From assembly GCA_977862235.1 (NCBI GenBank), contig OZ374565.1:2666001-2716068 (forward strand): DNA of 50,068 nucleotides, given 5' to 3'. Positions 1 to 43,900 of this stretch are shown here, piece after piece. The translations under genes and the position numbers were made by a program. Source of the stretch: Dudresnaya verticillata (lineage: Eukaryota). The notes below the pieces were generated by a model. That model ran no database searches and was not told where the DNA came from. It was given only the letters and a program-made list of their open reading frames with translations. Each line of letters starts with the position of its first letter. Positions within the stretch are counted from its first letter, which is position 1.

Positions 1-1082
1 ATCACAGAGTCTGTGGCTGGGGCGATTCCATCAGAGTCTAGAGCTGCTGCTGCCTTACTGTAGGCGCCCTCCTTTGCAAGGCGAAGGGCTCGTGAGGCAT
101 TGATACGGCGTTGCTCTTCTGCGGAAGGCGCAGTCTGCTCACGGAATGTCGAGCCCTTCAAGGCCTCCTGCCATAGGGCGTCGTAATCCTTGAGTCCCCA
201 GCGTCGGATTCGATCGCGGAAGGTGCCGATCGAGGACGCAGAGGTTGACGCGCTGGCCCTTGCACTCGCGGCGGGAGGATTGGACAAGACGGCTGCTGGA
301 AAAAGCAGGAATGCAGTGAGCTCTTTGGTGGCTTCCTGAGAGTTGGTTGCGTTCGTAAAAGCCCATACCGTCTTGGACAGTGCGTCGCGCACCTCGGCGC
401 GGACGCGAGACGGTATATGTGTGACCATAGGGATATGCGAGCGACAGATGTCTTCGACCGCCGGCAGAAGCTGCCCTCCTGGACCCCGCGCAACGGGTGG
501 GGTTTGCGCAGTTGGTACCTCTCGAGTAGCAGGTACCGGTGCAGGAGGCGGCTCCTGGCTGTCCGGGATTCGTCGCGGGGCTGGCAGGATATCGTCCGCT
601 GGCTCGCCGTCCTCGGGTTGCGTCTCCGTGACCGCGTCCAGAGCAGGAGACTGTGATGGCGCGGCTACAGTTTCTTCACGGCTCGGTGTCGTCAATTGGT
701 TGGACGGGACGTGGGAGAACGCCGGAGTGCGAGTAGCGGGACATGCGCTGCAATTCTTGTACCGCATACTGTACATGCCTTCACTGTTCATGCGGGAGCT
801 ACAGTGGGTGGGCATGTACTTGTTGTGAGTCACACAGTACCATACTCCATAGTCCAGGAGCTGCTGCTTGAGAGGCTCGATGTCGGTCCTCGTCGGTGGT
901 CCTCGCCTGCCAGGAACATGCATCTTCCGCAGGTGCATGAGTAGCGCTTCTACAGTAGGCAGTGAGGACGACTGGCAGCCCAGAGGACAGCTGGTACTGT
1001 TTGTCGGGCGGTGTTTTGCCGAAGGCATAAAGCATGGAGAGAGCCATACCTTCGGCATGTCGGGGTGCTGCTGACCAATCAT
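1..1082 (-). CDS. N-terminal part of RT-RLE polyprotein (runs off window start)
   Basis: ATG at 1082; same sequence as the N-terminus of ORF 3470..6958, including the C2H2 finger. Confidence 0.9.
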   Translation of the reverse strand, partial: MIGQQHPDMPKVWLSPCFMPSAKHRPTNSTSCPLGCQSSSLPTVEALLMHLRKMHVPGRRGPPTRTDIEPLKQQLLDYGVWYCVTHNKYMPTHCSSRMNSEGMYSMRYKNCSACPATRTPAFSHVPSNQLTTPSREETVAAPSQSPALDAVTETQPEDGEPADDILPAPRRIPDSQEPPPAPVPATREVPTAQTPPVARGPGGQLLPAVEDICRSHIPMVTHIPSRVRAEVRDALSKTVWAFTNATNSQEATKELTAFLLFPAAVLSNPPAASARASASTSASSIGTFRDRIRRWGLKDYDALWQEALKGSTFREQTAPSAEEQRRINASRALRLAKEGAYSKAAAALDSDGIAPATDSV

Positions 1083-1822
1083 GGTTACAGCGCTGGGTAA
1101 GGTACCTGTAAAGGTCCTCTACAGTAGGTTCCCACGGGGCACAGACCTCCTAACCGGGACGCAAGCCTGTCGTCCGTCGTCAGTCTGTTCGGGACACCTC
1201 CAGAGGGTGCTACAGGTGGCCTTGCTGCGAGATGAGGGCCTCTTCGCAGCGTAGGGCGCGAGATCGCGCACTTTGCGCACGAGCTCGCGCAAAAGGGCGC
1301 GCGTGTTAGCGTTCGTGCGCGCAGAGTTATCGGACGTTCCCTTCCCTGCCGCAGCTGAGAAGACTCTCTTCACTGCGGTCCTGTAACGCGCGGTACTTCT
1401 CGTTTGCACAAGCTCTCAATGGGGTCGCAGAACCACCGTTTACCTGTGAGTGCCCACAGGATTTTTGGCCTCCCCCGAAGGTTCGCTGGCAGGACGTTCG
1501 CTCGATCTTAGAAGGGGTGGTTTCAAAACAGGATCCACCAGGCTTAAGCCACGTTACCCCAACTTCGACGTTGCTTGGCACGTTTCTGCGATGAGCTTGT
1601 GGGTCACGAGCCGCCTACCACTCAAGGTCGAGGGTCTTTGGCGATTCCCACACTTGTAGGTCTCTCGGCACTTCCCGAAGGAAGATTTTACAGGACAAGC
1701 CTGGCCTTTACCAATCTGTCAGTTGAAGGGTGTGAAACCCCTCTGTCGACAGTCCACGGCAGCCTAGACAGAGTCTAGGCTGTGCCGGGTACAAGCAAAA
1801 CGCGTACAGGGCCAGGGAAAGA

Positions 1823-1868
1823 AAGATAAGTCAGTGGGGCCCGGGCAAATTTCAAGGTGAGGGATCAC
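1823..1868 (+). promoter_or_regulatory. 5S internal-control-region mimic (box A + box C) in element 5' UTR; also at 7699-7744, 8965-9010(-), 20158-20203, 30868-30913, 36997-37042, 43311-43356
   Basis: AAGATAAGTC-N22-AGGTGAGGGATCAC is identical in motif and spacing to 5S nt 51-60 and 83-96. Function is inferred. Confidence 0.6.
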
Positions 1869-1905
1869 CTTAAAAGTAAGCGCAAAATAGGAAACGCGTG
1901 ACCGT

Positions 1906-1946
1906 CGGCGACGACGGCGGCGGCGACGGCGGCGACGACGACGGCG
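1906..1946. repeat. GC-rich (CGG/CGA)n trinucleotide tract in element 5' UTR
   Basis: cggcgacgacggcggcggcgacggcggcgacgacgacggcg, present in every copy that has a 5' end. Confidence 0.8.
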
Positions 1947-2146
1947 TCGCGGCGCAGATCGGCGGCGCGGAAAGAGACAAAAGTAGACCGCGCTCGCCCG
2001 CCCGCGAAGGTGAAGGGCTGAAAAACCCCGCACCGACGCGCCGTCGCGCGCTCGAACAGGCGGCACCGCCGCCGAAAAGATCGGTGCAGAACTTGCTGAG
2101 AAATCTCCGAAACAAAAAATTCGGCAGATCGCGAGGGGTTCTCCGG

Positions 2147-2190
2147 GTACTGAGGTGAGGGATCACTCTGGAATCGCCAGTGCCGAATGT
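2147..2190 (+). pseudogene. 5S rRNA 3' half (nt 77-120) of disrupted gene
   Basis: GTACTGAGGTGAGGGATCACTCTGGAATCGCCAGTGCCGAATGT followed by a T-run. Confidence 0.93.
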
Positions 2191-2202
2191 TTTTATTTTT
2201 TT
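2190..2202 (+). terminator. RNA polymerase III oligo(dT) terminator (repeated after every 5S 3' end)
   Basis: TTTTTATTTTTTT at the end of 5S helix I. Confidence 0.85.
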
Positions 2203-3279
2203 GCACCTCATTCCTTCCTCCCCGCCGCCCTCTGCGTACATTGCTGCCTTGCATACCTCTCCCACAGAATCCCCGACCCACTGCCTCTGTACAGCGTATT
2301 CTTTTCACTCGCACTTTTCCCCTTTTCTTGTAAGTGGGAGGGAGTCTGAGAGTGTTTGCAGGTGTCTAGGGGTTGTTTAGGGTTAGGTCTAGGGTTAGTT
2401 TGGTTACTGTGGTACGCGAGGGGCATGATATTGGGAGGGTAAAGGGTCTAGTGTTGGTGCATGGAATGAATCATGGTGGTGGAAGGAATGGATCAGTGTG
2501 GTGGATGAATTGGATTTAGGGACATAGAATTGGATTAGATTTAGTACCCAGAAGATTGGATCAAGGATCACCACAATCGGATCAAGTCTGGTGGCTGGGG
2601 TGAGGGTGGCTTGGACGTTTGTGCTCATAACTTTGGAACGGCTGGGGCTAGGGAGCTGCTCAGTAGCTGAATCGAAGCGTCTCGTTGCTGCGCATTGCGT
2701 AGCGCTCTTACCCTCCTAAATCGACTTTTTGGCGCGTTTCTATGGTGCAAAACGTCCCCACGGGCCGTCGGCAGCTTTTGAGCAGATCAAATAGGGGTTT
2801 GGGGCATGTATGGTTATGGGTGGGTTTAGGGGTGTTAGGGATGTGTCATTTTAACGCGTTTAGGAGTGTAGGGAGTGGGAATGAAAGTAGTAAGGATGAG
2901 GAAATGGAAAGGGAAGGATGAGAAAGTATAGTACAATGCAGTAATACAAATCACGGAATGCATCAGGTTGGGATCCAATAAGGGTGGATGGATTGGATCA
3001 ACGGAAGTCAAGGCGTTATAGGATTGGATCTAGGGGCTCTGTAAATTAGATTGGGTGCTGGTTTCATTGAACCAAGGGGTCAGAACGTCCATGAGCTGGT
3101 TGACTGTATTTATATTGAATCCTGCGTTTAGAGTAAATGGTATACGGTTATGGGTCATTACTTTAATGCTCCACGTGTACACTACAGTCGGATGGACATT
3201 GGACGCAGGAGTCTTTAGTCGATGACGGGGAGTGCAGTTGATGGCGCATTTAAATAGGGGTACGGCGGGAACAGCAAGC
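2191..3279 (+). repeat. 5S rDNA non-transcribed spacer, 1,089 bp; 11 near-identical copies (also 12668, 13877, 20524, 21733, 22942, 24151, 25360, 31489, 37803, 43996)
   Basis: 1,209-bp periodicity of consecutive units. The only difference noticed is G>T near 23820. Confidence 0.93.
3249..3256 (+). promoter_or_regulatory. TATA-like upstream element of 5S gene (-31 to -24)
   Basis: TTTAAATA at the usual upstream position for 5S genes, in every unit. Confidence 0.6.
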
Positions 3280-3368
3280 ACATTCGGCCATACTACGCAG
3301 ACATGCTCCGTATCCCATCCCGAACTGCGAAGATAAGTCTCGTCAGGCTGGTTTAGTACTGAGGTGAG
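3280..3368 (+). pseudogene. 5S rRNA 5' part (nt 1-89), disrupted by copies 2+3; 3' half at 12624-12667
   Basis: ACATTCGGCCATAC...TTAGTACTGAGGTGAG, then the element 3' end TTCAAC. Confidence 0.93.
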
Positions 3369-6300
3369 TTCAACTTTATAACAGGTGACCATATTCTAAT
3401 ATTTGTCGACGTACAATCTACTGTAGTATCACAACAAAGTTAAACCCCAACTCAAAACAACCTGCACATCTACACCTCCTGTTGGATCCCTTCCATCAGG
3501 CACTTGACGTTGTTCTGCACCAGTCGCGCCGCGTGCCTGTGGAACAGAGCCGCTCGCGAAACACCGCGAGTTACCATGGCCCGAGAAGCCACGGTATCCG
3601 CCAACTCTTGCATATACTTGTGCGCCTCCGGGTGCCAGCCACCTAGTGTGGTCATCGGCACCGGCACAAGCCTTGCCCCCGGTCCGGCAGCCTGGATGAA
3701 GCCACGATAAGTCCGCACCTTGTCAGCGTGGGCGTTCTTCAGCGTCCCTTGCGGGTTTGTTATGCAGCTGAGAATGCGTTGTTCTGACGACAGTGGATGA
3801 CTGATTGTGACGTCCAGGTAGTCCGTTCCTCCTTCTGTTCCAAGCGCCTTGATGTCCGGCCGATCCAAGTGAGCCCCCACAGGGCGGGGCTCCACAATCG
3901 GGGTGCGTGTCGCACGTTTCAGATCCGAAGCCAGCAGACGAACCTGAGAGTCGTGGCGCCACGACCGAGGAGATCCGCTGTTCCGCATGCCGTTCGGACA
4001 AATCAGCAGATGGTCGCCGTGAACATCCATCATCTTCTTGCACCCGGCCCGAGGACACTCCGTGTCGGGTTCCAGCAGTGGAATCCGACAGTAGAATCGA
4101 AGCCATACGCGGTAGTCCCGATCCGCAATGTACGTCTTCATGCCTGGTGCCGGCTGGCACTTGAGCCAGTCCTTGGCGCCCGGCACGCCAAGGGAAGCTC
4201 GGAAAGCTTGCGTCCGCCTGTCCCCGAGCGGCAGCTCGGCTTGCACTTTCTTCAGAACCAACCGCGTCAAGTCCCGCTGGCGCGGGCACTCGTCGCTGTC
4301 GATCTTCTCCAGGTCCAGGGCATCCTCACTATGGCACTTGGCGCTCCAGTCTTCGTGCGCTTCTACTGCAAAAGGATCGTCAGAAAGAGCAGTGTTCACA
4401 GAAGCGGGTAAGATAGAACGCAGTAAGTTGCGGGTCAGTGAAAGGGACGCCAAAAACGCGCTCGAGTTCATGTCGCCAGCTCCCGAAATACCGATTCCGA
4501 AGCTGGGCTCTTTCGTGCGCAGGGGAAGCTGAAGTTCGCGGAAGGTGTCCCTCGGTAGGACTCCTCCCACGAGCTTGCGCATGCAAGCCTCAATCTTCTG
4601 GTCGAAGAGCTCGGCGCCCTTTGCCGTGGCGGATGATGGAACTACTCGCAGCAGGTAGTTCAGCCGGCAGACTCCGGCACAGTTGCGGAGTAGAGTGATG
4701 GCCACGTGTAGGTCTTCTAGTCCCGAAATTGCGTCCAGCAGGGGCTGGATGGACTCGACATGGCCATTCACGCTCTCCTCCATGTAGTTCTGCGTTCCAA
4801 TCGGAGCCTGAAGTACTGTAGTGCCTTCTCCGTAGCTCTGCCCAAGATCCGACGGGTAGGCAGCGCAGTCTTCTGGGTCGGGTGCAGTAGGCCACCAAAC
4901 AGTACACTTGTCCATGCGCAGGTGGAAGCCATAGCCCTTAGCTTCCTCGGAGTCAAAGAAGGACAGAACCTTCCTGAGTACGGCGTGTTTCGCCACGATG
5001 ACGCCGTCGTCCAGGTAGAACAGTGACAGCAGCAAGTTGTTCGCCCCCTCCGCTTGCTGATTGCGGCCCGAGCGCCGCAGGTCGGCGGTGAGTTCCTTCA
5101 ACTGTTTGATCAGTGCCTGCAGCACCAAAGCAAACAGTAACGGCCCGAGCGGGTCACCTTGCTGTACACCAGTGACACTCCGCAGTAGAGTGTCACCCAT
5201 CCACAGGTGCGGGCCCTCAGAGTCATAACAGTATCTGACCCACGGTAGTAGTTCAGGCATATGTCGGCGGACCTCCTTCATGAATGCTTTGCGGCTGACA
5301 AGGTTGAAGGCATTCTTCAAGTCCACTTGTAGCAACCCGTAGGACTTGTCATGGCCGTGAGACTTCTGCAGCTTCCGGACCGCGTGTACAATGGCTTCTG
5401 TGCCGCCCGAGGTTGCGACCCCGAGCTGAAGCGGTTCGAGGTATGCCTTGGCCTTGGGAGCGACTCTGGTCATGAGCATAGAGCTCACGAGTCGTCGGAT
5501 TGTCTCTCCTACAGCAATGGGGCGGACACCGCCGGTGCGCTTCTTCAGAGCCGTGAGAGGAGCGCTGGCAATCCAAGGCGACAGCTCCGCAGGTCCTGCG
5601 CCGCTGGCCAGCACGTTGACCATTTTGGTGAGCCCGCCAAGCAGGCCCGTGTGCTCGTGAGTGGTCGGGACTGAGAGCAGTTCCTGCAGATGCGTCGGTG
5701 ATAGTCCTGTTCCCCCCGAGGCCGAAGCCCGGGGGAACTTGGCCACTGCTTTTCGTACTTCGTCGGCTGTGAAAGGCACGAAGTCAGGCATGGTCGGCAG
5801 CGGTTCGGACTGGTCAAGCTCGTGGTCCGCGTCGGTTTGCGGTACGGACTGCGGGTGCTTGTCCTTCATGGACTGTATCACAGAGTCTGTGGCTGGGGCG
5901 ATTCCATCAGAGTCTAGAGCTGCTGCTGCCTTACTGTAGGCGCCCTCCTTTGCAAGGCGAAGGGCTCGTGAGGCATTGATACGGCGTTGCTCTTCTGCGG
6001 AAGGCGCAGTCTGCTCACGGAATGTCGAGCCCTTCAAGGCCTCCTGCCATAGGGCGTCGTAATCCTTGAGTCCCCAGCGTCGGATTCGATCGCGGAAGGT
6101 GCCGATCGAGGACGCAGAGGTTGACGCGCTGGCCCTTGCACTCGCGGCGGGAGGATTGGACAAGACGGCTGCTGGAAAAAGCAGGAATGCAGTGAGCTCT
6201 TTGGTGGCTTCCTGAGAGTTGGTTGCGTTCGTAAAAGCCCATACCGTCTTGGACAGTGCGTCGCGCACCTCGGCGCGGACGCGAGACGGTATATGTGTGA

Positions 6301-8022
6301 CCATAGGGATATGCGAGCGACAGATGTCTTCGACCGCCGGCAGAAGCTGCCCTCCTGGACCCCGCGCAACGGGTGGGGTTTGCGCAGTTGGTACCTCTCG
6401 AGTAGCAGGTACCGGTGCAGGAGGCGGCTCCTGGCTGTCCGGGATTCGTCGCGGGGCTGGCAGGATATCGTCCGCTGGCTCGCCGTCCTCGGGTTGCGTC
6501 TCCGTGACCGCGTCCAGAGCAGGAGACTGTGATGGCGCGGCTACAGTTTCTTCACGGCTCGGTGTCGTCAATTGGTTGGACGGGACGTGGGAGAACGCCG
6601 GAGTGCGAGTAGCGGGACATGCGCTGCAATTCTTGTACCGCATACTGTACATGCCTTCACTGTTCATGCGGGAGCTACAGTGGGTGGGCATGTACTTGTT
6701 GTGAGTCACACAGTACCATACTCCATAGTCCAGGAGCTGCTGCTTGAGAGGCTCGATGTCGGTCCTCGTCGGTGGTCCTCGCCTGCCAGGAACATGCATC
6801 TTCCGCAGGTGCATGAGTAGCGCTTCTACAGTAGGCAGTGAGGACGACTGGCAGCCCAGAGGACAGCTGGTACTGTTTGTCGGGCGGTGTTTTGCCGAAG
6901 GCATAAAGCATGGAGAGAGCCATACCTTCGGCATGTCGGGGTGCTGCTGACCAATCATGGTTACAGCGCTGGGTAAGGTACCTGTAAAGGTCCTCTACAG
7001 TAGGTTCCCACGGGGCACAGACCTCCTAACCGGGACGCAAGCCTGTCGTCCGTCGTCAGTCTGTTCGGGACACCTCCAGAGGGTGCTACAGGTGGCCTTG
7101 CTGCGAGATGAGGGCCTCTTCGCAGCGTAGGGCGCGAGATCGCGCACTTTGCGCACGAGCTCGCGCAAAAGGGCGCGCGTGTTAGCGTTCGTGCGCGCAG
7201 AGTTATCGGACGTTCCCTTCCCTGCCGCAGCTGAGAAGACTCTCTTCACTGCGGTCCTGTAACGCGCGGTACTTCTCGTTTGCACAAGCTCTCAATGGGG
7301 TCGCAGAACCACCGTTTACCTGTGAGTGCCCACAGGATTTTTGGCCTCCCCCGAAGGTTCGCTGGCAGGACGTTCGCTCGATCTTAGAAGGGGTGGTTTC
7401 AAAACAGGATCCACCAGGCTTAAGCCACGTTACCCCAACTTCGACGTTGCTTGGCACGTTTCTGCGATGAGCTTGTGGGTCACGAGCCGCCTACCACTCA
7501 AGGTCGAGGGTCTTTGGCGATTCCCACACTTGTAGGTCTCTCGGCACTTCCCGAAGGAAGATTTTACAGGACAAGCCTGGCCTTTACCAATCTGTCAGTT
7601 GAAGGGTGTGAAACCCCTCTGTCGACAGTCCACGGCAGCCTAGACAGAGTCTAGGCTGTGCCGGGTACAAGCAAAACGCGTACAGGGCCAGGGAAAGAAA
7701 GATAAGTCAGTGGGGCCCGGGCAAATTTCAAGGTGAGGGATCACCTTAAAAGTAAGCGCAAAATAGGAAACGCGTGACCGTCGGCGACGACGGCGGCGGC
7801 GACGGCGGCGACGACGACGGCGTCGCGGCGCAGATCGGCGGCGCGGAAAGAGACAAAAGTAGACCGCGCTCGCCCGCCCGCGAAGGTGAAGGGCTGAAAA
7901 ACCCCGCACCGACGCGCCGTCGCGCGCTCGAACAGGCGGCACCGCCGCCGAAAAGATCGGTGCAGAACTTGCTGAGAAATCTCCGAAACAAAAAATTCGG
8001 CAGATCGCGAGGGGTTCTCCGG
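3369..8022 (-). mobile_element. Full-length CRE-like RLE non-LTR retrotransposon, copy 2 (4,654 bp)
   Basis: Flanked by 13-bp TSD (3356-3368 / 8023-8035); ~1.06-kb 5' UTR, intact ORF, 101-bp 3' UTR. Confidence 0.95.
3470..6958 (-). CDS. RT-restriction-like endonuclease polyprotein, 1162 aa
   Basis: C-x3-C-x13-H-x4-H finger; RT motifs GGVRPIAVGE, DLKNAFN, GVQQGDPLGP, YLDD; C-x4-C-x9-H-x3-C knuckle; RHD, RPD, DVT and K of the RLE. Confidence 0.96.
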   Translation of the reverse strand: MIGQQHPDMPKVWLSPCFMPSAKHRPTNSTSCPLGCQSSSLPTVEALLMHLRKMHVPGRRGPPTRTDIEPLKQQLLDYGVWYCVTHNKYMPTHCSSRMNSEGMYSMRYKNCSACPATRTPAFSHVPSNQLTTPSREETVAAPSQSPALDAVTETQPEDGEPADDILPAPRRIPDSQEPPPAPVPATREVPTAQTPPVARGPGGQLLPAVEDICRSHIPMVTHIPSRVRAEVRDALSKTVWAFTNATNSQEATKELTAFLLFPAAVLSNPPAASARASASTSASSIGTFRDRIRRWGLKDYDALWQEALKGSTFREQTAPSAEEQRRINASRALRLAKEGAYSKAAAALDSDGIAPATDSVIQSMKDKHPQSVPQTDADHELDQSEPLPTMPDFVPFTADEVRKAVAKFPRASASGGTGLSPTHLQELLSVPTTHEHTGLLGGLTKMVNVLASGAGPAELSPWIASAPLTALKKRTGGVRPIAVGETIRRLVSSMLMTRVAPKAKAYLEPLQLGVATSGGTEAIVHAVRKLQKSHGHDKSYGLLQVDLKNAFNLVSRKAFMKEVRRHMPELLPWVRYCYDSEGPHLWMGDTLLRSVTGVQQGDPLGPLLFALVLQALIKQLKELTADLRRSGRNQQAEGANNLLLSLFYLDDGVIVAKHAVLRKVLSFFDSEEAKGYGFHLRMDKCTVWWPTAPDPEDCAAYPSDLGQSYGEGTTVLQAPIGTQNYMEESVNGHVESIQPLLDAISGLEDLHVAITLLRNCAGVCRLNYLLRVVPSSATAKGAELFDQKIEACMRKLVGGVLPRDTFRELQLPLRTKEPSFGIGISGAGDMNSSAFLASLSLTRNLLRSILPASVNTALSDDPFAVEAHEDWSAKCHSEDALDLEKIDSDECPRQRDLTRLVLKKVQAELPLGDRRTQAFRASLGVPGAKDWLKCQPAPGMKTYIADRDYRVWLRFYCRIPLLEPDTECPRAGCKKMMDVHGDHLLICPNGMRNSGSPRSWRHDSQVRLLASDLKRATRTPIVEPRPVGAHLDRPDIKALGTEGGTDYLDVTISHPLSSEQRILSCITNPQGTLKNAHADKVRTYRGFIQAAGPGARLVPVPMTTLGGWHPEAHKYMQELADTVASRAMVTRGVSRAALFHRHAARLVQNNVKCLMEGIQQEV

Positions 8023-8035
8023 GTACTGAGGTGAG

Positions 8036-11000
8036 TTCAACTTTATAACAGGGGACCATATTCTAATATTTGTCGACGTACAATCTACTGTAGTATCACA
8101 ACAAAGTTAAACCCCCAACTCAAAACAACTTGCACATCTACACCTCCTGTTGGATCCCTTCCATCAGGCACTTGACGTTGTTCTGTACCAGTCGCGCCGC
8201 GTGCCTGTGGAATAGAGCCGCTCGCGAAACACCGCGAGTTACCATGGCCCGAGAAGCCACGGTATCCGCCAACTCTTGCATATACTTGTGCGCCTCCGGG
8301 TGCCAGCCACCTAGTGTGGTCATCGGCACCGGCACAAGCCTTGCCCCCGGTCCGGCAGCCTGGATGAAGCCACGGTAAGTCCGCACCTTGTCAGCGTGGG
8401 CGTTCTTCAGCGTCCCTTGCGGGTTTGTTATGCAGCTGAGAATGCGTTGTTCTGACGACAGTGGATGACTGATTGTGACGTCCAGGTAGTCCGTTCCTCC
8501 TTCTGTTCCAAGCGCCTTGATGTCTGGCCGATCCAGGTGAGCCCCCACCGGGCGGGGCTCCACAATCGGGGTGCGTGTCGCACGTTTCAGATCCGAAGCC
8601 AGCAGACGAACCTGAGAGTCGTGGCGCCACGACCGAGGAGAACCGCTGTTCCGCATGCCGTTCGGACAAATCAGCAGATGGTCGCCCCTCAGTACCCCTC
8701 GCGATCTGCCGAATTTTTTGTTTCGGAGATTTCTCAGCAAGTTCTGCACCGATCTTTTCGGCGGCGGTGCCGCCTGTTCGAGCGCGCGACGGCGCGTCGG
8801 TGCGGGGTTTTTCAGCCCTTCACCTTCGCGGGCGGGCGAGCGCGGTCTACTTTTGTCTCTTTCCGCGCCGCCGATCTGCGCCGCGACGCCGTCGTCGTCG
8901 CCGCCGTCGCCGCCGCCGTCGTCGCCGACGGTCACGCGTTTCCTATTTTGCGCTTACTTTTAAGGTGATCCCTCACCTTGAAATTTTCCCGGGCCCCACT
9001 GACTTATCTTTCTTTCCCTGGCCCTGTACGCGTTTTGCTTGTACCCGGCACAGCCTAGACTCTGTCTAGGCTGCCGTGGACTGTCGACAGAGGGGTTTCA
9101 CACCCTTCAACTGACAGATTGGTAAAGGCCAGGCTTGTCCTGTAAAATCTTCCTTCGGGAAGTGCCGAGAGACCTACAAGTGTGGGAATCGCCAAAGACC
9201 CTCGACCTTGAGTGGTAGGCGGCTCGTGACCCACAAGCTCATCGCAGAAACGTGCCAAGCAACGTCGAAGTTGGGGTAACGTGGCTTAAGCCTGGTGGAT
9301 CCTGTTTTGAAACCACCCCTTCTAAGATCGAGCGAACGTCCTGCCAGCGAACCTTCGGGGGAGGCCAAAAATCCTGTGGGCACTCACAGGTAAACGGTGG
9401 TTCTGCGACCCCATTGAGAGCTTGTGCAAACGAGAAGTACCGCGCGTTACAGGACCGCAGTGAAGAGAGTCTTCTCAGCTGCGGCAGGGAAGGGAACGTC
9501 CGATAACTCTGCGCGCACGAACGCTAACACGCGCGCCCTTTTGCGCGAGCTCGTGCGCAAAGTGCGCGATCTCGCGCCCTACGCTGCGAAGAGGCCCTCA
9601 TCTCGCAGCAAGGCCACCTGTAGCACCCTCTGGAGGTGTCCCGAACAGACTGACGACGGACGACAGGCTTGCGTCCCGGTTAGGAGGTCTGTGCCCCGTG
9701 GGAACCTACTGTAGAGGACCTTTACAGGTACCTTACCCAGCGCTGTAACCATGATTGGTCAGCAGCACCCCGACATGCCGAAGGTATGGCTCTCTCCATG
9801 CTTTATGCCTTCGGCAAAACACCGCCCGACAAACAGTACCAGCTGTCCTCTGGGCTGCCAGTCGTCCTCACTGCCTACTGTAGAAGCGCTACTCATGCAC
9901 CTGCGGAAGATGCATGTTCCTGGCAGGCGAGGACCACCGACGAGGACCGACATCGAGCCTCTCAAGCAGCAGCTCCTGGACTATGGAGTATGGTACTGTG
10001 TGACTCACAACAAGTACATGCCCACCCACTGTAGCTCCCGCATGAACAGTGAAGGCATGTACAGTATGCGGTACAAGAATTGCAGCGCATGTCCCGCTAC
10101 TCGCACTCCGGCGTTCTCCCACGTCCCGTCCAACCAATTGACGACACCGAGCCGTGAAGAAACTGTAGCCGCGCCATCACAGTCTCCTGCTCTGGACGCG
10201 GTCACGGAGACGCAACCCGAGGACGGCGAGCCAGCGGACGATATCCTGCCAGCCCCGCGACGAATCCCGGACAGCCAGGAGCCGCCTCCTGCACCGGTAC
10301 CTGCTACTCGAGAGGTACCAACTGCGCAAACCCCACCCGTTGCGCGGGGTCCAGGAGGGCAGCTTCTGCCGGCGGTCGAAGACATCTGTCGCTCGCATAT
10401 CCCTATGGTCACACATATACCGTCTCGCGTCCGCGCCGAGGTGCGCGACGCACTGTCCAAGACGGTATGGGCTTTTACGAACGCAACCAACTCTCAGGAA
10501 GCCACCAAAGAGCTCACTGCATTCCTGCTTTTTCCAGCAGCCGTCTTGTCCAATCCTCCCGCGGCGAGTGCAAGGGCCAGCGCGTCAACCTCTGCGTCCT
10601 CGATCGGCACCTTCCGCGATCGAATCCGACGCTGGGGACTCAAGGATTACGACGCCCTATGGCAGGAGGCCTTGAAGGGCTCGACATTCCGTGAGCAGAC
10701 TGCGCCTTCCGCAGAAGAGCAACGCCGTATCAATGCCTCACGAGCCCTTCGCCTTGCAAAGGAGGGCGCCTACAGTAAGGCAGCAGCAGCTCTAGACTCT
10801 GATGGAATCGCCCCAGCCACAGACTCTGTGATACAGTCCATGAAGGACAAGCACCCGCAGTCCGTACCGCAAACCGACGCGGACCACGAGCTTGACCAGT
10901 CCGAACCGCTGCCGACCATGCCTGACTTCGTGCCTTTCACAGCCGACGAAGTACGAAAAGCAGTGGCCAAGTTCCCCCGGGCTTCGGCCTCGGGGGGAAC

Positions 11001-13756: not shown

Positions 13757-13876
13757 ACATTCGGCCATACTACGCAGACATGCTCCGTATCCCATCCCGA
13801 ACTGCGAAGATAAGTCTCGTCAGGCTGGTTTAGTACTGAGGTGAGGGATCACTCTGGAATCGCCAGTGCCGAATGT
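13757..13876 (+). rRNA. 5S rRNA, intact
   Basis: 120 nt; helix I ACATTCGGC/GCCGAATGT; conserved eukaryotic 5S motifs GGCCATAC, CGAAC, GAAG.TAAG, TTAGTACT, GGAAT; T-run terminator. Confidence 0.95.
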
Positions 13877-14965
13877 TTTTATTTTTTTGCACCTCATTCC
13901 TTCCTCCCCGCCGCCCTCTGCGTACATTGCTGCCTTGCATACCTCTCCCACAGAATCCCCGACCCACTGCCTCTGTACAGCGTATTCTTTTCACTCGCAC
14001 TTTTCCCCTTTTCTTGTAAGTGGGAGGGAGTCTGAGAGTGTTTGCAGGTGTCTAGGGGTTGTTTAGGGTTAGGTCTAGGGTTAGTTTGGTTACTGTGGTA
14101 CGCGAGGGGCATGATATTGGGAGGGTAAAGGGTCTAGTGTTGGTGCATGGAATGAATCATGGTGGTGGAAGGAATGGATCAGTGTGGTGGATGAATTGGA
14201 TTTAGGGACATAGAATTGGATTAGATTTAGTACCCAGAAGATTGGATCAAGGATCACCACAATCGGATCAAGTCTGGTGGCTGGGGTGAGGGTGGCTTGG
14301 ACGTTTGTGCTCATAACTTTGGAACGGCTGGGGCTAGGGAGCTGCTCAGTAGCTGAATCGAAGCGTCTCGTTGCTGCGCATTGCGTAGCGCTCTTACCCT
14401 CCTAAATCGACTTTTTGGCGCGTTTCTATGGTGCAAAACGTCCCCACGGGCCGTCGGCAGCTTTTGAGCAGATCAAATAGGGGTTTGGGGCATGTATGGT
14501 TATGGGTGGGTTTAGGGGTGTTAGGGATGTGTCATTTTAACGCGTTTAGGAGTGTAGGGAGTGGGAATGAAAGTAGTAAGGATGAGGAAATGGAAAGGGA
14601 AGGATGAGAAAGTATAGTACAATGCAGTAATACAAATCACGGAATGCATCAGGTTGGGATCCAATAAGGGTGGATGGATTGGATCAACGGAAGTCAAGGC
14701 GTTATAGGATTGGATCTAGGGGCTCTGTAAATTAGATTGGGTGCTGGTTTCATTGAACCAAGGGGTCAGAACGTCCATGAGCTGGTTGACTGTATTTATA
14801 TTGAATCCTGCGTTTAGAGTAAATGGTATACGGTTATGGGTCATTACTTTAATGCTCCACGTGTACACTACAGTCGGATGGACATTGGACGCAGGAGTCT
14901 TTAGTCGATGACGGGGAGTGCAGTTGATGGCGCATTTAAATAGGGGTACGGCGGGAACAGCAAGC

Positions 14966-18800: not shown

Positions 18801-20479
18801 AGAAGCTGCCCTCCTGGACCCCGCGCAACGGGTGGGGTTTGCGCAGTTGGTACCTCTCGAGTAGCAGGTACCGGTGCAGGAGGCGGCTCCTGGCTGTCCG
18901 GGATTCGTCGCGGGGCTGGCAGGATATCGTCCGCTGGCTCGCCGTCCTCGGGTTGCGTCTCCGTGACCGCGTCCAGAGCAGGAGACTGTGATGGCGCGGC
19001 TACAGTTTCTTCACGGCTCGGTGTCGTCAATTGGTTGGACGGGACGTGGGAGAACGCCGGAGTGCGAGTAGCGGGACATGCGCTGCAATTCTTGTACCGC
19101 ATACTGTACATGCCTTCACTGTTCATGCGGGAGCTACAGTGGGTGGGCATGTACTTGTTGTGAGTCACACAGTACCATACTCCATAGTCCAGGAGCTGCT
19201 GCTTGAGAGGCTCGATGTCGGTCCTCGTCGGTGGTCCTCGCCTGCCAGGAACATGCATCTTCCGCAGGTGCATGAGTAGCGCTTCTACAGTAGGCAGTGA
19301 GGACGACTGGCAGCCCAGAGGACAGCTGGTACTGTTTGTCGGGCGGTGTTTTGCCGAAGGCATAAAGCATGGAGAGAGCCATACCTTCGGCATGTCGGGG
19401 TGCTGCTGACCAATCATGGTTACAGCGCTGGGTAAGGTACCTGTAAAGGTCCTCTACAGTAGGTTCCCACGGGGCACAGACCTCCTAACCGGGACGCAAG
19501 CCTGTCGTCCGTCGTCAGTCTGTTCGGGACACCTCCAGAGGGTGCTACAGGTGGCCTTGCTGCGAGATGAGGGCCTCTTCGCAGCGTAGGGCGCGAGATC
19601 GCGCACTTTGCGCACGAGCTCGCGCAAAAGGGCGCGCGTGTTAGCGTTCGTGCGCGCAGAGTTATCGGACGTTCCCTTCCCTGCCGCAGCTGAGAAGACT
19701 CTCTTCACTGCGGTCCTGTAACGCGCGGTACTTCTCGTTTGCACAAGCTCTCAATGGGGTCGCAGAACCACCGTTTACCTGTGAGTGCCCACAGGATTTT
19801 TGGCCTCCCCCGAAGGTTCGCTGGCAGGACGTTCGCTCGATCTTAGAAGGGGTGGTTTCAAAACAGGATCCACCAGGCTTAAGCCACGTTACCCCAACTT
19901 CGACGTTGCTTGGCACGTTTCTGCGATGAGCTTGTGGGTCACGAGCCGCCTACCACTCAAGGTCGAGGGTCTTTGGCGATTCCCACACTTGTAGGTCTCT
20001 CGGCACTTCCCGAAGGAAGATTTTACAGGACAAGCCTGGCCTTTACCAATCTGTCAGTTGAAGGGTGTGAAACCCCTCTGTCGACAGTCCACGGCAGCCT
20101 AGACAGAGTCTAGGCTGTGCCGGGTACAAGCAAAACGCGTACAGGGCCAGGGAAAGAAAGATAAGTCAGTGGGGCCCGGGCAAATTTCAAGGTGAGGGAT
20201 CACCTTAAAAGTAAGCGCAAAATAGGAAACGCGTGACCGTCGGCGACGACGGCGGCGGCGACGGCGGCGACGACGACGGCGTCGCGGCGCAGATCGGCGG
20301 CGCGGAAAGAGACAAAAGTAGACCGCGCTCGCCCGCCCGCGAAGGTGAAGGGCTGAAAAACCCCGCACCGACGCGCCGTCGCGCGCTCGAACAGGCGGCA
20401 CCGCCGCCGAAAAGATCGGTGCAGAACTTGTTGAGATATCCGCGAAACAAAAATTTCGGCAGATCGCTGAGGGAGTCGC
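15827..20479 (-). mobile_element. Full-length copy 5
   Basis: TSDs 15814-15826 / 20480-20492. Confidence 0.95.
15929..19417 (-). CDS. RT-RLE polyprotein, 1162 aa
   Basis: Same motifs as 3470..6958, with few substitutions. Confidence 0.95.
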   Translation of the reverse strand: MIGQQHPDMPKVWLSPCFMPSAKHRPTNSTSCPLGCQSSSLPTVEALLMHLRKMHVPGRRGPPTRTDIEPLKQQLLDYGVWYCVTHNKYMPTHCSSRMNSEGMYSMRYKNCSACPATRTPAFSHVPSNQLTTPSREETVAAPSQSPALDAVTETQPEDGEPADDILPAPRRIPDSQEPPPAPVPATREVPTAQTPPVARGPGGQLLPAVEDICRSHIPMVTHIPSRVRAEVRDALSKTVWAFTNATNSQEATKELTAFLLFPAAVLSNPPAASARASASTSASSIGTFRDRIRRWGLKDYDALWQEALKGSTFREQTAPSAEEQRRINASRALRLAKEGAYSKAAAALDSDGIAPATDSVIQSMKDKHPQSVPQTDADHELDQSEPLPTMPDFVPFTADEVRKAVAKFPRASASGGTGLSPTHLQELLSVPTTHEHTGLLGGLTKMVNVLASGAGPAELSPWIASAPLTALKKRTGGVRPIAVGETIRRLVSSMLMTRVAPKAKAYLEPLQLGVATSGGTEAIVHAVRKLQKSHGHDKSYGLLQVDLKNAFNLVSRKAFMKEVRRHMPELLPWVRYCYDSEGPHLWMGDTLLRSVTGVQQGDPLGPLLFALVLQALIKQLKELTADLRRSGRNQQAEGANNLLLSLFYLDDGVIVAKHAVLRKVLSFFDSEEAKGYGFHLRMDKCTVWWPTAPDPEDCAAYPSDLGQSYGEGTTVLQAPIGTQNYMEESVNGHVESIQPLLDAISGLEDLHVAITLLRNCAGVCRLNYLLRVVPSSATAKGAELFDQKIEACTRKLVGGVLPRDTFRELQLPLRTKEPSFGIGISGAGDMNSSAFLASLSLTRNLLRSILPASVNTALSDDPFAVEAHEAWSAKCHSEDALDLEKIDSDECPRQRDLTRLVLKKVQAELPLGDRRTQAFRASLGVPGAKDWLKCQPAPGMKTYIADRDYRVWLRFYCQIPLLEPDTECPRAGCKKKMDVHGDHLLICPNGMRNSGSPRSWRHDSQVRLLASDLKRATRTPIVEPRPVGAHLDRPDIKALGTEGGTDYLDVTISHPLSSEQRILSCITNPQGTLKNAHADKVRTYRGFIQAAGPGARLVPVPMTTLGGWHPEAHKYMQELADTVASRAMVTRGVSRAALFHRHAARLVQNNVKCLMEGIQQEV

Positions 20480-26448: not shown

Positions 26449-26537
26449 ACATTCGGCCATACTACGCAGACATGCTCCGTATCCCATCCCGAACTGCGAA
26501 GATAAGTCTCGTCAGGCTGGTTTAGTACTGAGGTGAG
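26449..26537 (+). pseudogene. 5S rRNA 5' part, disrupted by copies 6+7; 3' half at 31445-31488
   Basis: 5S nt 1-89 joined to the element 3' end. Confidence 0.92.
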
Positions 26538-29500: not shown

Positions 29501-31184
29501 GACCGCCGGCAGAAGCTGCCCTCCTGGACCCCGCGCAGCGTGTCGGGTTTGCGCAGTTGGTACCACTTGAGTAGCTGGTACCGGTGCAGGAGGCGGCTCC
29601 TGGCTGTCCGGGATTCGTCGCGGGGCTGGCAGGATATCGTCCGCCGGCTCGCCGTCCTCGGGTTGCGTCTCCGTGACCGCGTCCAGAGCAGGAGTCTGTG
29701 ATGGCGCGGCTACAGTTTCTTCACGGCTCGGTGTCGTCAATTGGTTGGACGGGACGTGGGAGAACGCCGGAGTGCGAGTGGCGGGACATGCGCTGCAATT
29801 CTTGTACCGCATACTGTACATGCCTTCACTGTTCATGCGGGAGCTACAGTGGGTAGGCATGTACTTGTTGTGAGTCACACAGTACCATACTCCATAGTCC
29901 AGGAGCTGCTGCTTGAGAGGCTCGATGTCGGTCCTCGTCGGTGGTCCTCGCCTGCCAGGAACATGCATCTTCCGCAGGTGCATGAGTAGCGCTTCTACAG
30001 TAGGCAGTGAGGACGACTGGCAGCCCAGAGGACAGCTGGTACTGTTTGTCGGGCGGTGTTTTGCCGAAGGCATAAAGCATGGAGAGAGCCATACCTTCGG
30101 CATGTCGGGGTGCTGCTGACCAATCATGGTTACAGCGCTGGGTAAGGTACCTGTAAAGGTCCTCTACAGTAGGTTCCCACGGGGCACAGACCTCCTAACC
30201 GGGACGCAAGCCTGTCGTCCGTCGTCAGTCTGTTCGGGACACCTCCAGAGGGTGCTACAGGTGGCCTTGCTGCGAGATGAAGGCCTCTTCGCAGCGTAGG
30301 GCGCGAGATCGCGCAATTTGCGCACGAGCTCGCGCAAAAGGGCGCGCGTGTTAGCGTTCGTGCGCGCAGACTTATCGGACGTTCCCTTCCCTGCCGCAGC
30401 TGAGAAGACTCTCTTCACTGCGGTCCTGTAACGCGCGGTACTTCTCGTTTGCACAAGCTCTCAATGGGGTCGCAGAACCACCGTTTACCTGTGAGTGCCC
30501 ACAGGATTTTTGGCCTCCCCCGAAGGTTCGCTGGCAGGACGTTCGCTCGATCTTAGAAGGGGTGGTTTCAAAACAGGATCCACCAGGCTTAAGCCACGTT
30601 ACCCCAACTTCGACGTTGCTTGGCACGTTTCTGCGATGAGCTTGTGGGTCACGAGCCGCCTACCACTCAAGGTCGAGGGTCTTTGGCGATTCCCACACTT
30701 GTAGGTCTCTCGGCACTTCCCGAAGGAAGATTTTACAGGACAAGCCTGGCCTTTACCAATCTGTCAGTTGAAGGGTGTGAAACCCCTCTGTCGACAGTCC
30801 ACGGCAGCCTAGACAGAGTCTAGGCTGTGCCGGGTACAAGCAAAACGCGTACAGGGCCAGGGAAAGAAAGATAAGTCAGTGGGGCCCGGGCAAATTTCAA
30901 GGTGAGGGATCACCTTAAAAGTAAGCGCAAAATAGGAAACGCGTGACCGTCGGCGACGACGGCGGCGGCGACGGCGGCGACGACGACGGCGTCGCGGCGC
31001 AGATCGGCGGCGCAAAAAGAGACAAAAGTAGACCGCGCTCGCCCGCCGTCAAAGGTGAAGGGCTGAAAAACCCCGCACCGACGCGCCGTCGCGCGCTCGA
31101 ACAGGCGGCACCGCCGCCGAAAAGATCGGTGCAGAACTTGCTGAGAAATCTCCGAAACAAAAAATTCGGCAGATCGCGAGCTCA
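26538..31184 (-). mobile_element. Full-length copy 6
   Basis: 5' junction GCGAG-CTCA, followed by a doubled TSD at 31185-31209. Confidence 0.95.
26639..30127 (-). CDS. RT-RLE polyprotein, 1162 aa (variant TQVVPTAQTRHAARG)
   Basis: Same domain motifs as the other full-length copies. Confidence 0.95.
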   Translation of the reverse strand: MIGQQHPDMPKVWLSPCFMPSAKHRPTNSTSCPLGCQSSSLPTVEALLMHLRKMHVPGRRGPPTRTDIEPLKQQLLDYGVWYCVTHNKYMPTHCSSRMNSEGMYSMRYKNCSACPATRTPAFSHVPSNQLTTPSREETVAAPSQTPALDAVTETQPEDGEPADDILPAPRRIPDSQEPPPAPVPATQVVPTAQTRHAARGPGGQLLPAVEDICRSHIPMVTHIPSRVRAEVRDALSKTVWAFTNATNSQEATKELTAFLLFPAAVLSNPPAASARAGASTSASSIGTFRDRIRRWGLKDYDALWQEALKGSTFREQTAPSAEEQRRINASRALRLAKEGAYSKAAAALDSDGIAPATDSVIQSMKDKHPQSVPQTDADHELDQSEPLPTIPDFVPFTADEVRKAVAKFPRASASGGTGLSPTHLQELLSVPTTHEHTGLLGGLTKMVNVLANGAGPAELSPWIASAPLTALKKRTGGVRPIAVGETIRRLVSSMLMTRVAPKAKAYLEPLQLGVATSGGTEAIVHAVRKLQKSHGHDKSYGLLQVDLKNAFNLVSRKAFMKEVRRHMPELLPWVRYCYDSEGPHLWMGDTLLRSVTGVQQGDPLGPLLFALVLQALIKQLKELTADLRRSGRNQQAEGANNLLLSLFYLDDGVIVAKHAVLRKVLSFFDSEEAKGYGFHLRMDKCTVWWPTAPDPEDCAAYPSDLGQSYGEGTTVLQAPIGTQNYMEESVNGHVESIQPLLDAISGLEDLHVAITLLRNCAGVCRLNYLLRVVPSSATAKGAELFDQKIEACMRKLVGGVLPRDTFRELQLPLRTKEPSFGIGISGAGDMNSSAFLASLSLTRNLLRSILPASVNTALSDDPFAVEAHEDWSAKCHSEDALDLEKIDSDECPRQRDLTRLVLKKVQAELPLGDRRTQAFRASLGVPGAKDWLKCQPAPGMKTYIADRDYRVWLRFYCRIPLLEPDTECPRAGCKKMMDVHGDHLLICPNGMRNSGSPRSWRHDSQVRLLASDLKRATRTPIVEPRPVGAHLDRPDIKALGTEGGTDYLDVTISHPLSSEQRILSCITNPQGTLKNAHADKVRTYRGFIQAAGPGARLVPVPMTTLGGWHPEAHKYMQELADTVASRAMVTRGVSRAALFHRHAARLVQNNVKCLMEGIQQEV

Positions 31185-31209
31185 GTACTGAGGTGAGTAC
31201 TGAGGTGAG

Positions 31210-31444
31210 TTCAACTTTATAACAGGTGATCATATTCTAATATTTGTCGACGTACAATCTACTGTAGTATCACAACAAAGTTAAACCCCAACTCAAAACA
31301 ACTTGCACATCTACACCTCCTGTTGGATCCCTTCCATCAGGCACTTGACGTTGTTCTGCACCAGTCGCGCCGCGTGCCTGTGGAATAGAGCCGCTCGCGA
31401 AACACCGCGAGTTACCATGGCCCGAGAAGCCACAGTATCCGCCA
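31210..31444 (-). mobile_element. Copy 7, 5'-truncated (235 bp)
   Basis: Element 3' end, then TSD 31445-31457. Confidence 0.9.
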
Positions 31445-35600: not shown

Positions 35601-37758
35601 ATAGGGATATGCGAGCGACAGATGTCTTCGACCGCCGGCAGAAGCTGCCCTCCTGGACCCCGCGCAACGGGTGGGGTTTGCGCAGTTGGTACCTCTCGAG
35701 TAGCAGGTACCGGTGCAGGAGGCGGCTCCTGGCTGTCCGGGATTCGTCGCGGGGCTGGCAGGATATCGTCCGCTGGCTCGCCGTCCTCGGGTTGCGTCTC
35801 CGTGACCGCGTCCAGAGCAGGAGACTGTGATGGCGCGGCTACAGTTTCTTCACGGCTCGGTGTCGTCAATTGGTTGGACGGGACGTGGGAGAACGCCGGA
35901 GTGCGAGTAGCGGGACATGCGCTGCAATTCTTGTACCGCATACTGTACATGCCTTCACTGTTCATGCGGGAGCTACAGTGGGTGGGCATGTACTTGTTGT
36001 GAGTCACACAGTACCATACTCCATAGTCCAGGAGCTGCTGCTTGAGAGGCTCGATGTCGGTCCTCGTCGGTGGTCCTCGCCTGCCAGGAACATGCATCTT
36101 CCGCAGGTGCATGAGTAGCGCTTCTACAGTAGGCAGTGAGGACGACTGGCAGCCCAGAGGACAGCTGGTACTGTTTGTCGGGCGGTGTTTTGCCGAAGGC
36201 ATAAAGCATGGAGAGAGACATACCTTCGGCATGTCGGGGTGCTGCTGACCAATCATGGTTACAGCGCTGGGTAAGGTACCTGTAAAGGTCCTCTACAGTA
36301 GGTTCCCACGGGGCACAGACCTCCTAACCGGGACGCAAGCCTGTCGTCCGTCGTCAGTCTGTTCGGGACACCTCCAGAGGGTGCTACAGGTGGCCTTGCT
36401 GCGAGATGAGGGCCTCTTCGCAGCGTAGGGCGCGAGATCGCGCACTTTGCGCACGAGCTCGCGCAAAAGGGCGCGCGTGTTAGCGTTCGTGCGCGCAGAG
36501 TTATCGGACGTTCCCTTCCCTGCCGCAGCTGAGAAGACTCTCTTCACTGCGGTCCTGTAACGCGCGGTACTTTTCGTTTGCACAAGCTCTCAATGGGGTC
36601 GCAGAACCACCGTTTACCTGTGAGTGCCCACAGGATTTTTGGCCTCCCCCGAAGGTTCGCTGGCAGGACGTTCGCTCGATCTTAGAAGGGGTGGTTTCAA
36701 AACAGGATCCACCAGGCTTAAGCCACGTTACCCCAACTTCGACGTTGCTTGGCACGTTTCTGCGATGAGCTTGTGGGTCACGAGCCGCCTACCACTCAAG
36801 GTCGAGGGTCTTTGGCGATTCCCACACTTGTAGGTCTCTCGGCACTTCCCGAAGGAAGATTTTACAGGACAAGCCTGGCCTTTACCAATCTGTCAGTTGA
36901 AGGGTGTGAAACCCCTCTGTCGACAGTCCACGGCAGCCTAGACAGAGTCTAGGCTGTGCCGGGTACAAGCAAAACGCGTACAGGGCCAGGGAAAGAAAGA
37001 TAAGTCAGTGGGGCCCGGGCAAATTTCAAGGTGAGGGATCACCTTAAAAGTAAGCGCAAAATAGGAAACGCGTGACCGTCGGCGACGACGGCGGCGGCGA
37101 CGGCGGCGACGACGACGGCGTCGCGGCGCAGATCGGCGGCGCGGAAAGAGACAAAAGTAGACCGCGCTCGCCCGCCCGCGAAGGTGAAGGGCTGAAAAAC
37201 CCCGCACCGACGCGCCGTCGCGCGCTCGAACAGGCGGCACCGCCGCCGAAAAGATCGGTGCAGAACTTGTTGAGATATCCGCGAAACAAAAATTTCGGCA
37301 GATCGCTGAGGGAGTACTCAGCAGCAAACAGTAACGGCCCGAGCGGGTCACCTTGCTGTACACCAGTGACACTCCGCAGTAGAGTGTCACCCATCCACAG
37401 GTGCGGGCCCTCAGAGTCATAACAGTATCTGACCCACGGTAGTAGTTCAGGCATATGTCGGCGGACCTCCTTCATGAATGCTTTGCGGCTGACAAGGTTG
37501 AAGGCATTCTTCAAGTCCACTTGTAGCAACCCGTAGGACTTGTCATGGCCGTGAGACTTCTGCAGCTTCCGGACCGCGTGTACAATGGCTTCTGTGCCGC
37601 CCGAGGTTGCGACCCCGAGCTGAAGCGGTTCGAGGTATGCCTTGGCCTTGGGAGCGACTCTGGTCATGAGCATAGAGCTCACGAGTCGTCGGATTGTCTC
37701 TCCTACAGCAATGGGGCGGACACCGCCGGTGCAAAAATTTCGGCAGATCGCTGAGGGA
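32667..37758 (-). mobile_element. Full-length copy 8 plus extra 5' segments (internal RT fragment 37323-37732 and repeated 5' terminus 37733-37758)
   Basis: 37323-37732 matches copy 2 5129-5538; TSD 37759-37771. Confidence 0.93.
32768..36256 (-). CDS. RT-RLE polyprotein, 1162 aa
   Basis: Same as copy 2 except W13C. Confidence 0.95.
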   Translation of the reverse strand: MIGQQHPDMPKVCLSPCFMPSAKHRPTNSTSCPLGCQSSSLPTVEALLMHLRKMHVPGRRGPPTRTDIEPLKQQLLDYGVWYCVTHNKYMPTHCSSRMNSEGMYSMRYKNCSACPATRTPAFSHVPSNQLTTPSREETVAAPSQSPALDAVTETQPEDGEPADDILPAPRRIPDSQEPPPAPVPATREVPTAQTPPVARGPGGQLLPAVEDICRSHIPMVTHIPSRVRAEVRDALSKTVWAFTNATNSQEATKELTAFLLFPAAVLSNPPAASARASASTSASSIGTFRDRIRRWGLKDYDALWQEALKGSTFREQTAPSAEEQRRINASRALRLAKEGAYSKAAAALDSDGIAPATDSVIQSMKDKHPQSVPQTDADHELDQSEPLPTMPDFVPFTADEVRKAVAKFPRASASGGTGLSPTHLQELLSVPTTHEHTGLLGGLTKMVNVLASGAGPAELSPWIASAPLTALKKRTGGVRPIAVGETIRRLVSSMLMTRVAPKAKAYLEPLQLGVATSGGTEAIVHAVRKLQKSHGHDKSYGLLQVDLKNAFNLVSRKAFMKEVRRHMPELLPWVRYCYDSEGPHLWMGDTLLRSVTGVQQGDPLGPLLFALVLQALIKQLKELTADLRRSGRNQQAEGANNLLLSLFYLDDGVIVAKHAVLRKVLSFFDSEEAKGYGFHLRMDKCTVWWPTAPDPEDCAAYPSDLGQSYGEGTTVLQAPIGTQNYMEESVNGHVESIQPLLDAISGLEDLHVAITLLRNCAGVCRLNYLLRVVPSSATAKGAELFDQKIEACMRKLVGGVLPRDTFRELQLPLRTKEPSFGIGISGAGDMNSSAFLASLSLTRNLLRSILPASVNTALSDDPFAVEAHEDWSAKCHSEDALDLEKIDSDECPRQRDLTRLVLKKVQAELPLGDRRTQAFRASLGVPGAKDWLKCQPAPGMKTYIADRDYRVWLRFYCRIPLLEPDTECPRAGCKKMMDVHGDHLLICPNGMRNSGSPRSWRHDSQVRLLASDLKRATRTPIVEPRPVGAHLDRPDIKALGTEGGTDYLDVTISHPLSSEQRILSCITNPQGTLKNAHADKVRTYRGFIQAAGPGARLVPVPMTTLGGWHPEAHKYMQELADTVASRAMVTRGVSRAALFHRHAARLVQNNVKCLMEGIQQEV

Positions 37759-43627: not shown

Positions 43628-43652
43628 GTACTGAGGTGAGTACTGAGGTGAG

Positions 43653-43887: not shown

Positions 43888-43900
43888 GTACTGAGGTGAG

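Follow-up and report, generated by a model that had tools for sequence, protein, structure and literature searches.

A retrotransposon that splits 5S rRNA genes carries a reversed copy of their internal promoter boxes, a candidate TFIIIA-binding site

Why would a retrotransposon that interrupts 5S rRNA genes carry, in its own 5' UTR, the promoter boxes of the gene that it breaks? The question is raised by a stretch of 50,068 nt of the Dudresnaya verticillata contig OZ374565.1 (hereafter the window), which is a subtelomeric 5S rDNA array with a unit of 1209 bp and with TTTAGGGG repeats at its end from about 48608. The array holds 12 5S genes. Five are intact and identical, and seven are interrupted by an element of about 4.65 kb that lies antisense to 5S and has a single frame. 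A preliminary description of this DNA had reported that the 5' UTR of the element mimics the box A and box C region of 5S, and had offered three readings of the mimic: a captured TFIIIA site or Pol III promoter pointing against the ORF, a guide or tether acting in element RNA, and a decoy or operator for the element protein.

The likeness itself was confirmed by comparison with the intact host gene (Table 1). The two blocks match 5S at 10/10 and 14/14 positions, and the gap between them measures 22 nt in the mimic and in 5S alike. Only six of these 22 gap positions agree (0/6 at nt 61-66, 4/6 at nt 67-72 and 2/10 at nt 73-82), and the flanks are unlike 5S, with 9/50 and 6/25 identities. The 46-nt mimic is identical in six of its seven copies in the window; the seventh shows one difference, a single event that falls in the gap, leaving the boxes unchanged in all. 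Across the same seven copies, positions 1400-1968 contain one variable site, against many in the ORF.

Table 1. Positions in the window of the mimic, of the element that carries it and of the 5S features with which it is compared
Feature	Position	Strand	Remarks
Box A copy, 5S nt 51-60	1823..1832	+	Covers the constrained part of box A
Intermediate-element position	1839..1845	+	Consensus 3/3; 4/6 identical to 5S nt 67-72
Box C core copy, 5S nt 83-96	1855..1868	+	Inferred nick nt 89/90 = 1861/1862
Mimic copy 2	7699..7744	+	
Mimic copy 3	8965..9010	-	Within inverted element segment; one gap substitution
Mimic copy 4	20158..20203	+	
Mimic copy 5	30868..30913	+	
Mimic copy 6	36997..37042	+	
Mimic copy 7	43311..43356	+	
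Second, degenerate two-block cassette	1969..2021	+	153 nt downstream, same spacing; nearer to the mimic than to 5S
11-bp hairpin in element-sense RNA, around antisense box C	1850..1875	-	-11.4 kcal/mol, versus -8.9 on the plus strand
Inverted repeat around the +1 equivalent (1773)	1757..1787	.	Perfect 10-bp arms 1760-1769 and 1773-1782
Element ORF, 5' part	1..1082	-	Cut by window start
Element 5' UTR, about 1055 nt	1083..2137	-	GC-rich 5' end; bounds from first ATG (1082) and junctions; presumed internal promoter
Complete ORF, next copy	3470..6958	-	Frame 3470-6994, first ATG 6958; C2H2 and Cys/His N-terminal, RT, CCHC knuckle, restriction-like endonuclease
Target-site duplication, 5S nt 77-89	2147..2159	+	
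Severed 5S 3' half (nt 77-121) and T-run terminator	2147..2203	+	T-run from 2190
Intact host 5S gene, reference copy	13757..13877	+	nt 1 = 13757 by Rfam RF00001; one of five identical intact copies
TATA-like element of host 5S gene	3249..3256	+	-31 to -24; without counterpart upstream of the mimic

We assessed chance with 1000 dinucleotide shuffles of one full element, searched on both strands. An exact run of at least 14 nt arose in 1/1000 shuffles, at least 30/46 identities (the observed level) in 3/1000, and a pair of runs sharing a diagonal and totaling 24 nt in 0/1000, where the highest total was 18. A chance likeness is thus rejected by these tests. A 5S gene or pseudogene is also ruled out, given the unmatched flanks and the absence of any RF00001 match in 1000-2146 (Rfam, E up to 10). 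Two further 10-nt matches to 5S elsewhere in the element were taken as chance (E 8).

Agreement with the host follows the constraint on the promoter. With the consensus for box A, intermediate element (IE) and box C taken from PMC3369914 and registers that we set at nt 52, 68 and 82, the mimic equals the host at 20/21 constrained positions of nt 52-99 versus 10/27 others (Fisher p 2.5e-5, a value that overstates independence because positions cluster in blocks). All 12 constrained positions of box C and all six of box A are as in the host, the general box A consensus being fitted at 4/6 by host and mimic alike, and identity breaks down in the tail of box A, which is unconstrained. At the IE, 3/3 consensus positions are present at nt 68-73, for a weak consensus in a register of our own choosing, which we estimate would be reached by chance about 1 time in 8. 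At the five positions where the host departs from consensus (nt 54, 59, 88, 93 and 99), the mimic shares the host letter in 5/5. Positions of 5S RNA structure between and outside the boxes have been lost, and the clustering of mismatches arose in 6 of 10^6 trials under uniform neutral decay, which is therefore rejected. TFIIIA contacts box C through fingers 1-3 and the IE through finger 5, and its binding to box A is weak (PMC12409998); the exact spacing of the boxes suits one protein spanning a duplex.

The element is an autonomous CRE-like non-LTR retrotransposon with a restriction-like endonuclease (RLE). Its protein contains a Pfam RVT_1 reverse transcriptase (RT) domain at residues 484-700 and, at residues 980-1061, a CCHC motif and an RHD..E..RPD..D endonuclease, with spacers slightly longer than in the published SLACS/CRE pattern used as reference (PMC12857005). 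An AlphaFold model (pLDDT 81, low at the N-terminus) returned R2 proteins as top fold matches. By sequence, SLACS-named matches scored E ~1e-66 versus ~1e-7 for R2, and a Diplonema protein named SLACS is similar over its full length (26%, E 7e-78). In a tree of 41 rows drawn from the window protein and the 120 matches listed, the protein falls within a lineage of 24 members (support 100/100); this is a tree without an R2 outgroup and without reference CRE1. CRE is counted among the mostly target-specific RLE clades (PMC4640811). The relatives P0002-P0004, the nearest proteins among the matches listed, share 45-57% protein identity with the element, and in a more distant one, L002 (39% identical), no 5S gene lies within its 12.8 kb, so not all members of the lineage need target 5S. 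A Cys/His motif, WYC..H.K.(L/M)P...Y..C..C, found at residues 93-126 of P0001 and also in P0003 and P0004, has no Pfam match and is a candidate DNA-recognition module of the lineage. The protein P0006 has PF02902, the Ulp1-type protease family, upstream of its RT.

Insertion is site-specific. Each element 3' end is preceded by a copy of 5S nt 77-89 (GTACTGAGGTGAG), and this stretch is duplicated, sometimes together with nt 76. Hallmarks of target-primed reverse transcription (TPRT) were seen, namely 5' truncations, extra bases at junctions and one inversion, along with template switches at junctions that copy target bases. By TPRT logic, the first nick would fall on the 5S sense strand after nt 89. 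The mimic had been described as including the element's own cut site, which holds for this presumed first-strand nick; nt 77-82 and the second nick site were not copied. Every insertion splits the box C of the gene it enters.

On balance, we lean slightly towards TFIIIA binding as the selected function of the mimic, judging from its sequence pattern. The boxes would have been captured from a 5S gene and then kept by selection. Host TFIIIA, with TFIIIC, would dock on the duplex DNA boxes at their native spacing, facing against the ORF, and docking would keep the element's predicted internal promoter accessible within the 5S array. The benefit to transcription would come through a barrier or open-chromatin effect some 270-315 bp inside the element 5' end, whose GC-rich sequence adjoins the mimic. 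Because insertion splits the gene's own box C, the mimic would restore one ICR-like site per full-length insertion, and in element RNA the box C hairpin would mask a 14-nt antisense to 5S rRNA. The mimic may in this respect resemble ETC sites and tRNA-gene barriers, where Pol III factors bind without transcription: chromatin barriers are formed both by tRNA genes and by sites that bind TFIIIC but not Pol III (PMC12409998), an analogy limited by the fact that the barrier evidence concerns B-box (type 2) sites and the mimic is a type-1 site. We infer by this analogy a TFIIIA-dependent equivalent of an ETC site inside a retrotransposon. Within the TFIIIA reading, docking without much transcription is a tentative proposal that may well be wrong, and a real antisense Pol III transcript is unlikely. 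Doubtful, too, is the fuller scenario in which the element destroys a TFIIIA site and brings a replacement that tracks host 5S, with TFIIIA and TFIIIC licensing or throttling its expression and Pol III possibly transcribing back across the 5' end into the severed 5S half.

Such a transcript, about 420 nt long, had been predicted from the start equivalent to 5S +1 (1773) and the lack of a TTTT on the plus strand before 2190. There is indeed no earlier TTTT, but this is uninformative: none is expected at a T content of 10%, and none occurred in 96% of 20,000 shuffles. The predicted RNA would measure about 415-420 nt in two of the seven copies but 670-1065 nt in the other five. In the host's 5S genes, TTTAAATA occupies -31 to -24 and the base at -1 is C. 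Plant 5S genes likewise have a TATA-like box and a C at -1 (PMC13065811), and tRNA genes of plants and fission yeast depend on TATA-like elements (PMC11346459). Upstream of 1773 neither the TATA-like box nor the C at -1 is present, which counts against a working promoter and, with the inverted repeat over +1, favors factor docking over productive transcription. The proposal of a captured TFIIIA site or Pol III promoter thus divides: a TFIIIA site is the best supported of the three original readings, through identity at promoter-constrained positions and exact spacing, and an antisense Pol III transcript, with the host TATA-like box missing, is possible but unsupported.

The mimic could instead bind the element's own protein, as a copy of the target that serves as an operator for autoregulation or as a decoy left uncut. 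Its 14-nt block is centered 7+7 on the presumed first nick, and 0/7 mimics have been inserted into, as had been reported, against 7/12 5S genes (p 0.016, for copies that are not independent). On box C the two binding partners are inseparable, because this box also contains the element's nick site. R2 proteins, the best fold match, rely on a pair of separate DNA motifs a set distance apart (PMC10499050). The geometry in R2Bm, a distant analogue, nevertheless differs: its recognition motif, at -34 to -22, is on the flank that becomes joined to the 5' end of the element, and mutations in +6 to +37 of the primer flank are without effect (PMC10499050). Downstream footprints in the D clade stop near +20 (PMC11204384), whereas box A here would lie at +30 to +39, again on the primer side. 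In one of a pair of 5009-nt twin units, an extra short insertion sits at a site that lacks nt 1-75; if it was gained, box A is dispensable for targeting, but the difference may also be a loss by slippage and is weak evidence on box A. Neither the IE-like GG nor the matches at promoter-constrained positions are predicted by a decoy, which we consider improbable, largely by analogy with R2. A guide or tether, in which the motifs of element RNA pair either with 5S rRNA or, across the nick, with the top strand of 5S, could hybridize to 5S nt 51-96 at -48.9 kcal/mol. Element RNA is strongly structured locally, and short 3' homology helps R2 TPRT (PMC10499050). Yet antisense box C is predicted to be fully paired in its local hairpin (pairing probability 0.83-1.0 per stem base), and antisense box A mostly paired in a long-range helix. 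Base pairing moreover needs no exactly equal gap that is itself non-complementary, no observed 5' junction ends at the mimic, and TPRT starts at the RNA 3' end, some 4.3 kb away from the motif. These predictions weaken the guide proposal, to which we give little credence.

History without function is another explanation. The element lives among 5S genes, junction template switches copy target bases, and a decayed second cassette may be present, so the mimic might be a functionless relic of captured 5S DNA or the product of two short gene-conversion tracts from neighboring 5S genes. A relic does not readily account for perfect blocks around a gap of random-level identity (the 6 in 10^6 under uniform decay), for their coincidence with constrained promoter positions or for the near-invariance of 1400-1968 among copies relative to the ORF, and two independent conversion tracts in exact register are unlikely without selection; the chance we allow for this explanation is small. 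The blocks might also be an RNA structure or promoter motif of the element with a role of its own, their likeness to 5S being a by-product of origin. The predicted hairpin of each cassette ends at the box C-like block, and the non-5S flanks are shared, but the 24/24 identity to host 5S, including five departures from consensus, is left unexplained, and the UTR yielded neither an Rfam family nor a ribozyme pattern of HDV-like or hammerhead type. Of all the explanations weighed here, a motif with its own role seems to us the least probable.

The RNA and the second cassette do qualify the TFIIIA reading. The 7-bp box C hairpin noticed earlier is real, and in element-sense RNA its stem lengthens to 11 bp, one of them a U-G pair. 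Since this hairpin is more stable in element RNA, and since positions 1750-1899 fold as element RNA at z -6.5, RNA-level selection is also at work on the mimic, and the TFIIIA model accounts for it only as masking. The second cassette matches the mimic at 20/23 positions in two post hoc blocks (0/300 shuffles; 3/400 when the test was less closely fitted to the blocks). As a possible older cassette with the spacing of the first, it speaks for the TFIIIA reading. Its agreement with the 5S boxes is 14/24 only, a background level that 1125/2000 shuffles reach. Both cassettes have flanking bases in common that are not those of 5S, and the sequences suggest an old duplication. These shared flanks count against the TFIIIA reading because TFIIIA binding would not require them. 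On the minus strand, a 5' UTR domain of about 500 nt is predicted at 1310-1830, closed by the helices 1813-1824/1337-1348 and 1793-1810/1380-1398, and is possibly a translation or RNP element. Rfam found no family in the UTR, this domain included, and HDV-like and hammerhead ribozymes were absent both by Rfam and by our own pattern scan, which may miss divergent forms.

The mimic resembles promoter mimicry of the Cassandra type but belongs to none of the families in which this is known, being part of an autonomous element and reversed. The 5S promoters of Cassandra, a plant TRIM, keep the boxes, with variable linkers and no indels, and mirror changes in host box C (10.1101/2023.07.14.548913); the nemertean Ajax TRIMs likewise have 5S boxes at fixed spacing with variable linkers and without indels (PMC10886601). 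Our element shares with both this pattern of kept boxes A and C at fixed spacing, with an IE-like stretch, variable linkers and no indels, which speaks for the TFIIIA reading. It differs from these non-autonomous LTR elements, which are presumed to make their own RNA from the 5S promoter, in being an autonomous non-LTR element, in having the boxes on the plus strand and the ORF on the minus strand, about 300 nt inside its 5' end and with 30/46 nt matching, and in inserting into the very box that it copied. SINE3 is non-autonomous, and its 5S-derived head, in sense orientation, is the promoter; our element has no 5S head and the reversed orientation. With an RT-RLE frame of 1174 codons intact in five copies, it is autonomous, unlike Cassandra, Ajax and SINE3. 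The common ground with SINE3 and other 5S-derived SINEs is a 5S type-1 promoter in a non-LTR retroelement (PMC10946416), and the 5S-promoter transposable elements tabulated in that review are SINEs and TRIMs only.

Like the CRE group (SLACS, CRE1/2, CZAR, Cnl1, MoTeR and FoTeR), the element has a single ORF with zinc motifs, RT, CCHC and endonuclease, and inserts site-specifically with a target duplication. The targets of the CRE group are telomeres (PMC12857005) or spliced-leader genes (PMC4640811, PMC12857005), whereas this element enters 5S at nt 89, antisense. We found no report in the literature of a target-promoter copy in CRE-group UTRs. Mutsu is an APE-type element of the Tx1 clade. 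This fish LINE and the DNA transposon Dada-5S also insert in 5S rDNA, and the passages of the cited accounts that concern them do not describe an internal promoter copy in either (PMC10946416, PMC8869645). A CRE-type element that targets 5S, or an antisense 5S promoter in an autonomous LINE, was not found in the literature searched, which did not extend to Repbase or most subscription journals. Among 138 loci of relatives (80 of at least 467 metagenomic ones from 20 of 64 parts of the collection, 57 distant ones from prokaryote genomes and, from two viral scans, a single distant one), neither a 5S gene nor a convincing two-box motif was found by Rfam on 16 loci and a motif scan; two loose pattern matches in their 746 kb were treated as chance. 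The closest of the 138 loci listed have 39-48% identity and are fragments or degraded copies.

For their expression, R2-like elements rely on read-through by host Pol I. The element described here cannot use such read-through because it lies antisense in short Pol III genes, and its orientation implies a need for its own minus-strand promoter or for read-through from upstream. For the way in which antisense 5S elements are expressed, the backwards promoter copy offers a 46-bp, mutable candidate for the use of host Pol III factors. If the TFIIIA reading is true, 5S promoter mimicry would extend from non-autonomous passengers to an autonomous element that attacks the same promoter, and a parasite would have a new way to use the gene it breaks. 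As an RLE integrase, the element is also compact, targets 5S and leaves a clean duplication of 13-14 nt; our searches found no earlier description of it.

Individual copies show further features of their insertion. The element 5' end has two subtypes in 2096-2134, with several linked differences, and both fold a terminal hairpin. Within it, 2114-2126 is an inverted 12/13 copy of 5S nt 111-123 (2181-2193), which lie at -22 to -34 from the nick, the offsets of the R2Bm upstream motif; the stretch equivalently resembles 5S nt 1-10 on the plus strand. A match of this level was reached by 13/1000 shuffles and may be chance because the stretch is also part of the element's own 5' hairpin. A 5'-inverted insertion occupies 8036-12623, where 651 nt of the 3' end in normal orientation are followed by element positions 720-4647 inverted. 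Nine bases of the target lie at the point of inversion, and the structure resembles that left by L1 twin priming. At 37316-37760, a full-length copy has a complex 5' junction consisting of a snap-back-like stretch, an internal RT fragment 410 nt long and a second copy of the final 29 nt of the element 5' end. The twin units (26449-31457 and 38892-43964), identical over 5009 nt, each have full and truncated elements in tandem between target duplications, including one empty double duplication, and the second has an extra 3' fragment of about 50 nt. The last copy (45174-48607) is the most divergent, at about 1.6%; it is broken within its ORF and directly abuts the TTTAGGGG telomere repeats (48608-50068), and this passage of ORF into telomere repeats suggests a healed chromosome break.
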